NCBI GenBank assembly: GCA_037305845.1
Contig: CP147778.1
Coordinates: 2,144,001 to 2,208,000 of the forward strand
Source: Candidatus Freyarchaeum deiterrae
Lineage (GTDB): Archaea; Asgardarchaeota; Jordiarchaeia; Jordiarchaeales; Jordiarchaeaceae
Length of the DNA stretch: 64,000 nucleotides
Direction: 5' to 3'
Each line of letters begins with the position of its first letter. The first letter of the stretch is position 1. The notes under the pieces were generated by a model. The model was not told the DNA's origin. It made no database searches and saw only the letters and a list, made by a program, of their open reading frames with translations. Below, piece by piece: positions 30,254 through 60,011 of the stretch. The position numbers were made by a program, and so were the translations under genes.

Positions 30254-31647
30254 TCACACTATTTTACTCGTCTTCCAAGTGCCCAAGGCACGACCGAGCT
30301 CCTTGTGATCCTCAGCATACTTCTCCAACGGTATACCCTGCACAGAAGCGTCGATAGCCTGACGAAAAGAAGTAGCACCAGCACGAGGACCATCAGGATG
30401 CGCATGAATAGCGCCACCAACACCTACTATGAAATCCTTACCGAGATCCGCCATAATCTGAGGAACAATCTGAACAATGACACCACCAGCAGGCATAGGC
30501 AAAGTAGGCTTCAAATGATAGAACGGAAACGTCAACTCACGCCAAACCTGCAGATAAGTCTCCTTCATGAAAGGAGCTTTTCTGGAGGCTCGGGAACTAC
30601 TTGCACTCAATGTGCGAAATCAGTCTCCCGAATTCCTATTCCAAAGGGCGCTGGGTTAAAATTTTAACAGGGAAGTCCTGTTAAATATACTTCCATGTCA
30701 GCGCCGGCTAGTCTGCAGAATTTTCCTAGTATGAGTCTGGCGTCTACTCCGTATTCTGGTGATGCGTAGTGTACTGCTGCATAGTCTGTGTGTGCTAAAA
30801 CTGGTACTTTTATGCTGGGGTCTTCTGCTAGGTCTCTGAATGTTTCGTATCCTGTTGTGATGATGTTGACCATTAGTGCGTTTGCTCCTAGGTCTATGGC
30901 TTTTTCTGCTAGTTCTAGTGTTTTTTTGGGTCGGTCGGTTATGTTGACTGTGTAGAGTGTTTTTTCTCCTTTTTCTTCGTCTGCTTTGTCGATTGCTTCC
31001 ATGAATTTTACTACCCGGTCTTCTACTCGGTTTAGTTCCATGTCTGCTAGTAGTTCATCGTCTTTGATGAAGTCTACTCCGCCTGCTGCGACTTCGTATG
31101 CTAGGTCTGCTCCTATTTCGCAGGGTGAGTAGACGCAGGGTTTTATCATGTTGTTTAGTATGGGTCGGTCTTTTACTCCCAGTATCTCTCTTACTCCTTT
31201 TATTCCGAATTTTGGTCCTTTGAATCCGCTTACCCATTTTTTGGGGAATTGGAGGTCCAGTAGTTTTATTTTTCCGGCAGCGGAGAGGTTTCCGACTACT
31301 GTGCTCAGGAGTACGGGTAGGTTGGGGTAGCCGAGGTTGGTTATGGGGTACGCGATTTTTATTATCCAGTGTCTTTCTTCTGTTTTTGGTAGCTGCCATT
31401 GGTGTGGTGGGATTTCGAATACTGCTGTTACTCGGGCTGCGTGCAGTCTTCTGACTTCGGGTGTTTCTTTGGGTACGGGTGTCCAGGTTCCGGTGCTTTG
31501 TTCTAGGGCTGCTGCTACGCCCATTGTGTATCCGTCTAGCCATGAGGGCTGGGTTGTGTAGTATGTGGCTATTATGTTTTCTTCGGGGTCTATGCCTTCG
31601 GGTAGTGCTTCCATTGATGTTAATAATTCATAATCTTTTTCGCCCAA
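30254..31647 (-). CDS. RuBisCO-like protein (form IV), spliced from 3 exons: 31647-30687, 30656-30639, 30579-30254
   Basis: EQSTGTW, GPKFGI.G.R, MIKP, GGVDFIKDDELL and HAHPDG..AGA motifs. Removing the 30- and 59-nt inserts gives a continuous 434-aa ORF reading GADMEVYPAPFGKAPF. TTG start follows GGAGG. Confidence 0.88.
30580..30638 (-). other. Putative BHB mRNA intron (59 nt), RLP intron 2
   Basis: Central helix UUGG/CCAG, bulges AAU and AAA, long internal stem. Canonical cuts give GGA A|AA GCU (G-K-A). Confidence 0.85.
30657..30686 (-). other. Putative BHB mRNA intron (30 nt), RLP intron 1
   Basis: Central helix AAGU/AUUU, bulges AUA and UAA, perfect 9-bp inner stem, exon-exon stem GG/CC plus GGCGCUG/CAGCGCC. 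Cuts give GUA U|AC CCA (V-Y-P). Confidence 0.87.
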
Positions 31648-45790: not shown

Positions 45791-45965
45791 GCATGGATTC
45801 GACTTATAATTAAAATTTTTTGTCAACCTTTAACTTATAGAAAAATAAGTCTCGATGATAGTTTCATTACTCGGCTTTCAGAGATGCCATAATAACGTAC
45901 TATTTGAGGGATTTTAATATTCCGTTCCCTATTTTGTTACCTGCTTAGACTCTCTACGGATGCTC

Positions 45966-46127
45966 TTACCCCGTTCCTTTGCAAACGGGACAGATGACCT
46001 TACCAGTACCCCAGCAAGTCTTGCATATTGTCTTCGAGTAAGGGTCAGTTACACCAAGCCCTCCACATGTTCCGCATGCTATTTTTCCAGTTCCTTTGCA
46101 TTTTGGACATTTTGCCTTTCCAGCCAA
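45966..46127 (-). CDS. Stand-alone DnaJ-type zinc-finger microprotein, copy A (53 aa, absent from ORF track)
   Basis: MAGKAKCPKCKGTGKIACGTCGGLGVTDPYSKTICKTCWGTGKVICPVCKGTG has four CxxCxGxG motifs; GAGAGGA lies upstream of the TTG. Confidence 0.85.
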   Translation of the reverse strand: MAGKAKCPKCKGTGKIACGTCGGLGVTDPYSKTICKTCWGTGKVICPVCKGTG

Positions 46128-46297
46128 TACATATTCCTCTCCATTTATTTTTTGTCAACCTTTAACTTATAGAAAAATAAGTCTCGATGATAGTTTCATT
46201 GATCCGCTTTCAGAGATGCCATAATAACGTACTATTTGAGGGATTTTAATATTCCGTTCCCTATTTTGTTACCTGCTTAGACTCTCTCTGGATGTTT

Positions 46298-46459
46298 TTA
46301 CCCCGTTCCTTTGCAAACGGGACAGATGACCTTACCAGTACCCCCGCAAGTCTTGCATATTGTTTTCGAGTGAGGGTCAGTTACACCAAGCCCTTTACAT
46401 GTTGCGCATGCTATTTTTCCGGTTCCCATGCATTTTGGACATTTTTCCAATCCAGACAA
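46298..46459 (-). CDS. Stand-alone DnaJ-type zinc-finger microprotein, copy B (53 aa)
   Basis: MSGLEKCPKCMGTGKIACATCKGLGVTDPHSKTICKTCGGTGKVICPVCKGTG; all 8 Cys retained. Confidence 0.85.
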   Translation of the reverse strand: MSGLEKCPKCMGTGKIACATCKGLGVTDPHSKTICKTCGGTGKVICPVCKGTG

Positions 46460-46523
46460 TACATATTCCTCTCAATTTTTTAGGATACTAAGCAATGTAC
46501 TGCATTATAGCGGTTTATATTAC

Positions 46524-47757
46524 TTACTTCATCCCTTTGGCTGATACGATTCTAATAATATCTCTGTCCTTTAGTTCCGCGTTCTCAGATAACCTGATCC
46601 TCTTTCTGGCATCTTCTGCGTAGATGAAGGTTTCACCGAGGTCGGTGTGTACTGCGTAGGCTAGTTCTTTTGCTGTTGTTCCTTTTGGTACTAGGTATAC
46701 GTCGGGTAGAACGTTTCCGTTGTGGTCGCTGTATTTGTTCGCGTCTTCGACTGGATATACTGCGATCATGTTGAGTACTCCGAAAACCATTTGGTTGAGG
46801 GTTTCCTGTATTCCCGTGGAGCCGTATTTGCTTAGTATTTCTTCGCGTATTTTTTCTAAAACTGGTTTCTGGTTCTGGGGTATTTTGTCCGGTTTTAAGA
46901 TCTTAAATTCGGAGTCGCCGGGTCTGTATTCAATCGCTCCATCTTCTGCTAGTTTTCTGAGCATGTATTCTGCGAGTGAGCTTGCTGGTACGACTTTTCC
47001 TTTTTTCTTGAGTTTTTCTAGGTTTTGTACTGATGTTTTTCGGTCTATTTTGTTTGCGCATATCAGCATTGGTTTTGAAGCTTTTTGCAGTTCTCGTGAA
47101 AAATTGTATATTTGGTCATCGTTCCAGGCTTTGGGTTTTTCCGGGTCGAGTTTTGCGTTTTGTAAAGCTTTTTTGATGTGGGCTCTCTTTATTGCTAATC
47201 CCGATAATCTGTCTATAAGGAGTTCATCTAGCTTCCCTTTGGATGTATCTACTTCCCTAGCTATCTTTGGCCATTCACGTGTTATTATCTGTTTGAACCA
47301 CATTGCGATTTCTTTTTCAAGAAAGTCTACTTCCTCCTCCGGGTTTCCTGTTCCTGGTTCGATAGGTTTCCCCTCGAGGTCTGTGGCTCCTGATGCGTCA
47401 ACTACCTGTATTAATGCGTCGGCGCGTCGAAGGTCGTCCAGAAATTGGTTTCCTAATCCGCGTCCCTGCCAAGCGTCGGGCACCAGTCCTGCGACGTCGA
47501 GCAAGTTTACTGGTATGTAGCGTATGCCATCTACGCATATGGAGTTTTTGCAATTGTCTTTCACTCCGAGTTCTTTGCATACGCAATCTATTCGAACATA
47601 GCCCGTTCCTTGTTGGGCGTTTATTGTTGTAAAGGGATAGTCCGCTACCTTGTATTCTGTTAGGCAAGCCGCGTTCAGAAAAGTGGTTTATCGGTCCAAT
47701 GCACTATTTCGTGCGTTGGATTCCCGAATTAGGCTTACCTACAATTCCCACCAACAT
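46524..47757 (-). CDS. ychF: YchF/Obg-family translation-associated GTPase/ATPase, spliced from exons 47757-47721 and 47689-46524
   Basis: After removing 31 nt the frame reads MLVGIVGKPNSGKTTFLNA...DYPFTTI...DVAGLV...GLGNQFLDDL...NKID, with a C-terminal TGS domain; 400 aa. Confidence 0.9.
47690..47720 (-). other. Putative BHB-like mRNA intron (31 nt) in ychF
   Basis: Hairpin insert CCAA-C-GCAC/GUGC-A-UUGG carrying an in-frame UAG. A unique 31-nt excision restores GGA A|AA ACC; the central helix has one G.A mismatch in that register. Confidence 0.8.

Positions 47758-58960: not shown

Positions 58961-60011
<1,051 letters not shown>

Follow-up and report, generated by a model that had tools for sequence, protein, structure and literature searches.

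A 31-nt insert within the P-loop lysine codon of a GTPase gene

The window analysed here is a 64,000-nt stretch of the genome of Candidatus Freyarchaeum deiterrae, itself a single contig of 3,576,204 bases (CP147778.1). A YchF-related GTPase is encoded on its minus strand in two pieces: exon 1 (47721-47757) starts at the ATG at 47757 and reads MLVGIVGKPNSG, comprising 12 codons and the first A of the P-loop lysine codon, and exon 2 (46524-47689) holds the remainder of the gene, which is present in a single copy in the genome. Between the two lies a 31-nt BHB-type insert (47690-47720). The initial annotation had claimed that this 5′ exon, opening at 47757, was missing from the listed open reading frames and that the GKTT motif could be obtained only by removal of 47690-47720. 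This was borne out, in that amongst 832 deletions that open the frame the P-loop pattern G-x4-GK[ST] (GxxxxGKT) was produced by removal of 47720-47690 alone. The product is then 400 aa, the same length as in intron-free congeners. The unspliced frame encodes 17 aa before a UAG in the intron loop (47706-47704), and removal of 33 nt gives a 108-aa out-of-frame peptide. Exon 1 has been missed by ORF callers; the NCBI protein uses a downstream start (384 aa, without the P-loop), and the database products called for this gene group range from 326 to 391 aa.

The protein was identified as an archaeal YchF-related GTPase (NF007171, 527 bits versus a cut-off of 387; PF08438). It fell below the cut-off of the YchF/OLA1 equivalog TIGR00092 (68 bits versus 279), hence the ychF label originally given to the gene was replaced. 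Downstream of it (45960-46483) are two tandem, near-identical CxxCxGxG-repeat genes resembling a DnaJ-type zinc finger, approximately 330 nt apart and 88-91% alike, of which several relatives have one copy.

A check of the DNA itself had also been called for, and the insert was found to be letter-identical in six Logan contigs from six runs, which rules out a base-call error. A self-splicing or homing intron (group I/II or endonuclease-coding) was rejected, given an insert of only 31 nt with no ORF and no match of note in an Rfam search. The local hairpin is stronger than expected by chance (z -4.5, with 0 of 200 shuffles as strong).

Two possible cleavage registers at the same site

The insert could formally be cut in two registers, and the geometry initially described for each was reproduced. 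In the productive register, the 5′ half (47720-47726, minus strand) consists of the central strand CGGG (47726-47723) and the bulge AA^U (47722-47720), and the 3′ half (47689-47695, minus strand) of the central strand ACCG (47695-47692), in which A47695 lies opposite G47723, and the bulge AU^A (47691-47689); 31 nt are excised. The intervening inner hairpin (47696-47719, minus strand) has a CCAA/UUGG base, a GCAC/GUGC upper stem and a 6-nt loop. The rival register pairs UCGG (47727-47724) with CCGA (47694-47691), has the bulges GA^A and UA^A, and excises a 33-nt piece (47689-47721, minus strand), leaving the gene out of frame. Mixed cuts, one from each register, would remove 32 nt and are out of frame too.

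Three central C-G/G-C pairs are common to both registers, which differ at the helix ends only: A47695 either faces G47723 or pairs with U47720, and U47727 pairs with either A47688 or A47691. The productive register thus has three of four central pairs, flanked by helices of 2 bp and 4 bp, whilst the rival is canonical, with four pairs and a 5-bp inner helix. All four central pairs characterize the canonical BHB class (hBHBh′, HBh′), and it is the G47723·A47695 mismatch that places this insert, and those of six other lineages, outside it. The rival is approximately 3.8 kcal/mol lower in energy than the productive fold in the lineages with G·A, and 2.4 kcal/mol higher in the lineage of L041, which has C at 47695.

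In models of naked RNA the productive fold is rare, with the rival winning locally and a pairing between the exons (the exon zipper) winning in context. Pairing of the BHB core in the naked pre-mRNA was modelled at 0.01 in the G·A lineages and 0.78 in L041; several other introns also have low modelled shares, therefore these values say little about the cell.

Distribution and selection among relatives

Metagenome and protein searches across relatives retrieved an insert at the same base in eight congeneric lineages, with a length of 30-31 nt and, in every case, a 400-aa product from the same cut. The G·A form is found in seven (this genome, L040, L377, L378, L389, L379, where the insert is 30 nt, and L380). 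The L041 lineage (L041 and L381-L385) carries C instead of A, which makes the productive helix perfect (CGGG/CCCG) and deprives the rival of its inner helix. The gene is uninterrupted in five GTDB congeners and at all more distant loci seen. Trees, weak in their deep branches, did not discriminate between gain and loss of the intron or between the two directions of the C/A change.

Across the lineages, the first exon and codons 14-54 show almost exclusively synonymous changes, and the remainder of the gene had a pN/pS of approximately 0.1, up to a pS of 0.6-0.7; the gene is therefore alive and its first exon needed. The base and ends of the intron and both junctions are invariant, and the loop and upper stem vary. 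Pair covariation across five rows was no better than in shuffles (197/500). Separately, distant homologs at 56-58% (proteins P0038, P0046, P0064, P0068, P0074, P0081, P0090, P0091 and P0094) have been called at 361-380 aa without a P-loop; their starts may have been misassigned, or they may contain introns of independent origin close to this motif.

Joined and interrupted forms of the same sequence

A 400-aa member of an otherwise truncated protein cluster pointed to contigs of SRR28530378 and SRR28530379. In these Logan contigs, which come from a congener (L386 and L387), the exons are joined, and a contig of the same strain from SRR28530383 (L390) has a G·A-type insert. L386 and L387 are identical to L390 at all 2,971 aligned bases, the sole difference being the 31-nt productive piece, which, unlike the 33-nt piece, is not bounded by a slip-favouring repeat. 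All contigs of this strain start at one base, 268 nt upstream of the ATG; the initial stretch (L390:1-25 and L386:1-25) is absent from L378 and may represent one edge of a repeat or insertion element.

A second case concerns rtcB, for which the best 22 cluster representatives are all truncated. The rtcB of one strain of approximately 90% identity is represented in Logan both by a full-length, joined form and by one starting inside the intron (proteins P0157 and P0158; 485 aa joined and 425 aa broken), identical over 410 aa. The two contigs of that strain measure 4,161 and 4,190 nt, and this 29-nt gap equals the length of the rtcB intron (L391; genome 1452796-1452824, minus strand). A precise loss from the DNA would have to have occurred in both genes, which is less probable than an origin in reverse-transcribed RNA, so the intron-free contigs are likely to be cDNA. 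Assembled contigs display the major path only, and minor mis-cutting may occur at this intron. A junction pattern scan of the genome contigs gave chance matches only.

Comparison with other introns and the bulge-base consensus

A comparison set of 22 other mRNA inserts was curated, 19 from this genome and three from G003; the set is mostly motif-selected, with five members found without the motif and the others subsequently frame-checked. The candidates at genome 1145018, in moaE and at 3400025 were discarded because their placement was wrong or uncertain. Reference-free and shared-intron scans of the genome were too noisy for a census, the best register being the productive one at near the chance third, and the comparison was confined to the curated set. 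Comparison of 2.05 Mb of G003 showed few lineage-specific introns; the G003 orthologs of genome 302399, 1906070 and 1970006 have three 29-31-nt canonical BHB inserts that are absent from this genome, one of them situated in a GGKGGVGK P-loop-like motif.

In 21 of the 22 other introns, the productive register, with cuts placed after the second bulge base, has four central pairs. The exception is the rtcB intron, common to G003: at the helix position where the GTPase intron is mismatched it likewise carries G·A, and its G003 counterpart carries G-C. A opens 20 of 22 5′ bulges and 19 of 22 3′ bulges, and no bulge opens with G. Both productive bulges of the GTPase intron start with A and those of its rival with G and U, corresponding to a likelihood ratio of approximately 230 for the productive pair in this partly motif-selected set. 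From this correlation we infer a rule in which the bulge A would select the cut site.

Elsewhere in the window, a 28-nt kae1 insert (59706-59756) and two RuBisCO-like inserts of 30 nt (30657-30686) and 59 nt (30580-30638), all on the minus strand, likewise restore the frame in a register with four central pairs. The second intron of the RuBisCO-like gene (30580-30638, minus strand) has blocks in common with 47686-47732 (minus strand), with 23 of 2000 shuffles scoring as high; a common origin is unsupported, the pair having been picked post hoc and the best block being GTPase exon. At genome 2434689-2434719 (minus strand) is a 31-nt intron, found without the motif, in which 33- and 35-nt out-of-frame registers are the more stable.

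Relaxed motifs with three pairs often arise by chance (bioRxiv 10.64898/2026.10.13.758758), so the relaxed-BHB assignment rests on the orthologs. The original proposal that the relaxed 31-nt register is used gained support from the congener junction, the perfect helix of L041, the G·A of the rtcB intron and the bulge-base consensus, and we consider it very likely that the insert is a real, conserved, relaxed BHB mRNA intron cut in the 31-nt register.

It had also been suggested that productive and non-productive splicing compete, with EndA cutting in either register and the 33-nt frameshifted share setting the protein level. In accordance with such regulation, the rival is canonical and the more stable fold in seven lineages, a situation shared by just one of the 21 other introns with energies (genome 2434689-2434719), and the A that enables it is unchanged in those seven. 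However, 30% of four-fold sites, and 38% of those with A, are equally invariant in the same lineages, thus one constant A is not significant. The rival has been lost in the L041 lineage, its bulge bases run contrary to the consensus, its product varies from 22 to 108 aa amongst lineages, and the spliced path assembled from two runs follows the 31-nt register. Given that a canonical out-of-frame rival also lies one step away in 7 of the 22 other introns, regulated competition is not supported and is judged improbable; the rival register looks like a side effect of one base.

A predicted exon-exon zipper around the intron

In-context folding paired an exon-1 arm (47721-47741, minus strand) with an exon-2 arm (47661-47682, minus strand), the segment 47741-47732 with 47670-47661 and the segment 47728-47721 with 47682-47674. 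After splicing, this zipper forms a hairpin of 19 pairs, the tip of which carries the junction. Relative to synonymous shuffles with the BHB codons held fixed, its z ranged from -2.5 to -4.6 across all intron-bearing lineages, compared with values around -1 or closer to zero in congeners that lack the intron; of the 19 pairs, the former retain 18-19 and the latter 12-15. The changes within it are one-sided (for example G·U to G-C) with none two-sided, and the lineages are non-independent kin. For 16 introns of the genome the mean zipper z was -1.5, versus -0.07 for control coding stretches (P approximately 2e-5 with the GTPase gene left out), the excess exon pairing being present at about half of the 16 and consisting in part of the ordinary exon-side helix. 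This zipper, which resembles that of XBP1, is a new observation and is restricted to intron-bearing lineages.

Splicing enzymes and proposed mechanism

Genes for both an alpha and a beta EndA subunit are present in the genome, as is one for RtcB, and we infer these enzymes to be the agents of splicing. The alpha subunit is closest to Aeropyrum pernix EndA (3P1Z), with an L1/CSL specificity loop, and contains the specificity-loop lysine that has been tied to relaxed substrates (PMC5829648). In structures, the first bulge A is gripped by a cation-pi contact (PMC12397907).

We propose that an (alpha-beta)2 endonuclease would cut after the second base of AA^U and of AU^A, tolerating the G·A that closes the 4-bp helix on its intron side, and that RtcB would then ligate the exons and restore the P-loop lysine codon. 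The 31-nt register would probably be chosen over the more stable 33-nt one through its A-first bulges and 2-bp exon-side helix. The cut exons probably zip into the long hairpin, which would keep their ends together for ligation. Transcription yields the BHB strand ahead of its competitor, and EndA could thereby gain a window of opportunity.

The 31 nt might be lost by a different route, namely odd cuts on the 33-nt or zipper fold, another nuclease or ribosomal recoding, and for this could be cited that the models give the productive BHB a minor share of the conformers and that the 33-nt product would contain a G GGA AAC slippery heptamer. Nevertheless, a -1 shift at the heptamer meets a stop within four codons, the shift that is needed would drop the lysine, and a hop would have no matching landing codon, hence the sequence gives grounds to reject both a rescue of the 33-nt product by frameshifting and a ribosomal hop; cuts after the second bulge base, moreover, fit 21 of 22 other introns with four pairs, and they fit perfectly in L041. 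Such a route is therefore considered very unlikely. Least likely is a dead or dying gene with an unspliced hairpin insertion, at most a P-loop-less protein from a downstream start, and intron-free contigs that are DNA revertants, which would accord with the lack of an insert in five GTDB congeners and in every more distant relative examined and with the 326-391-aa database products, but not with a single-copy gene with near-silent change in its exon 1 and codons 14-54, a pN/pS of about 0.1 and invariant intron base and junctions beside a variable loop, and which would require precise loss in two different genes.

For the BHB intron cut in the 31-nt register, the choice between splicing and no splicing via the zipper would, if control exists, be a better candidate than register competition. 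On this rather unlikely reading, the weak helix, decoy register and zipper would together make splicing slow and conditional, with the GTPase controlling its own level through a structure switch; the BHB would stay masked by the zipper except where EndA cuts co-transcriptionally or the zipper is opened by a ribosome translating exon 1.

Relationship to known systems

The closest parallel is the cbf5 intron of Desulfurococcales and Sulfolobales (Watanabe 2002; Yoshinari 2006; Yokobori 2009, PMC2738675). Each is a short coding-region intron that splits a catalytic codon between its first and second base (Asp in cbf5, Lys here), is often (in cbf5) of the relaxed BHB type, is cut (here presumably) between bulge bases 2 and 3 by a hetero-oligomeric EndA, and is patchily gained and lost among relatives. 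As for cbf5, exact removal restores the frame, the motif is a relaxed one with two 3-nt bulges, and genes for a broad-specificity (alpha-beta)2 EndA and RtcB are present. The present intron differs in its gene, its Asgard phylum, its coexistence with many other introns of this kind in the same genome and its more stable out-of-frame register; splicing is here predicted from sequence.

The BHB intron in the 5′ UTR of Haloferax HVO_1309 (Schwarz 2020, PMC7714728) is likewise an mRNA substrate of the tRNA splicing endonuclease, but it is non-coding, with a frame indifferent to register, and the enzyme is of the alpha2 type. Within the searchable literature, outside of which most subscription papers fall, such introns were found only in cbf5 (PMC2738675) and this one Haloferax 5′ UTR (PMC7714728). 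Asgard non-canonical tRNA introns (PMC11291895; bioRxiv 10.64898/2026.10.13.758758) share the lineage, the motif and presumably the enzymes, and fall into canonical and relaxed classes; their geometry is set by the tRNA body, whereas here it must be supplied by the mRNA. Many tRNA introns have been reported for the Freyarchaeum genome (PMC11291895), and a term search of that paper returned no mention of mRNA introns. ARAGORN found only 17 tRNA genes in the whole genome, which fits multi-intron tRNAs that it cannot parse.

Splicing of XBP1 by IRE1 and RtcB (Peschek 2015, PMC4687415) also combines a protein endonuclease with RtcB on an mRNA in which a short intron sets the frame, and its exons also zip into a stem with their ends juxtaposed. 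IRE1, however, cuts two stem-loops under stress control, as opposed to a BHB that EndA would cut, and the present intron is not a member of that system. The distinctive feature here is an imperfect register that appears to be used over a canonical alternative of greater stability, for which the joined contigs offer probable evidence.

Implications

This intron provides a natural test case for cut-site choice by the archaeal splicing endonuclease on mRNA. The imperfect register appears to beat the more stable textbook one, and bulge bases would therefore outweigh helix perfection. Annotation that ranks motifs would select the wrong boundaries, and current records carry a P-loop-less protein. 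The joined contigs constitute likely junction-level support for the splicing of coding mRNAs by Asgard archaea with the enzymes that splice their tRNAs. The exon zipper hints at a way in which the halves of a cut mRNA are kept together for RtcB. Should the structure switch prove true, a translation-linked GTPase would offer a forerunner-like archaeal parallel of XBP1/HAC1 splicing.
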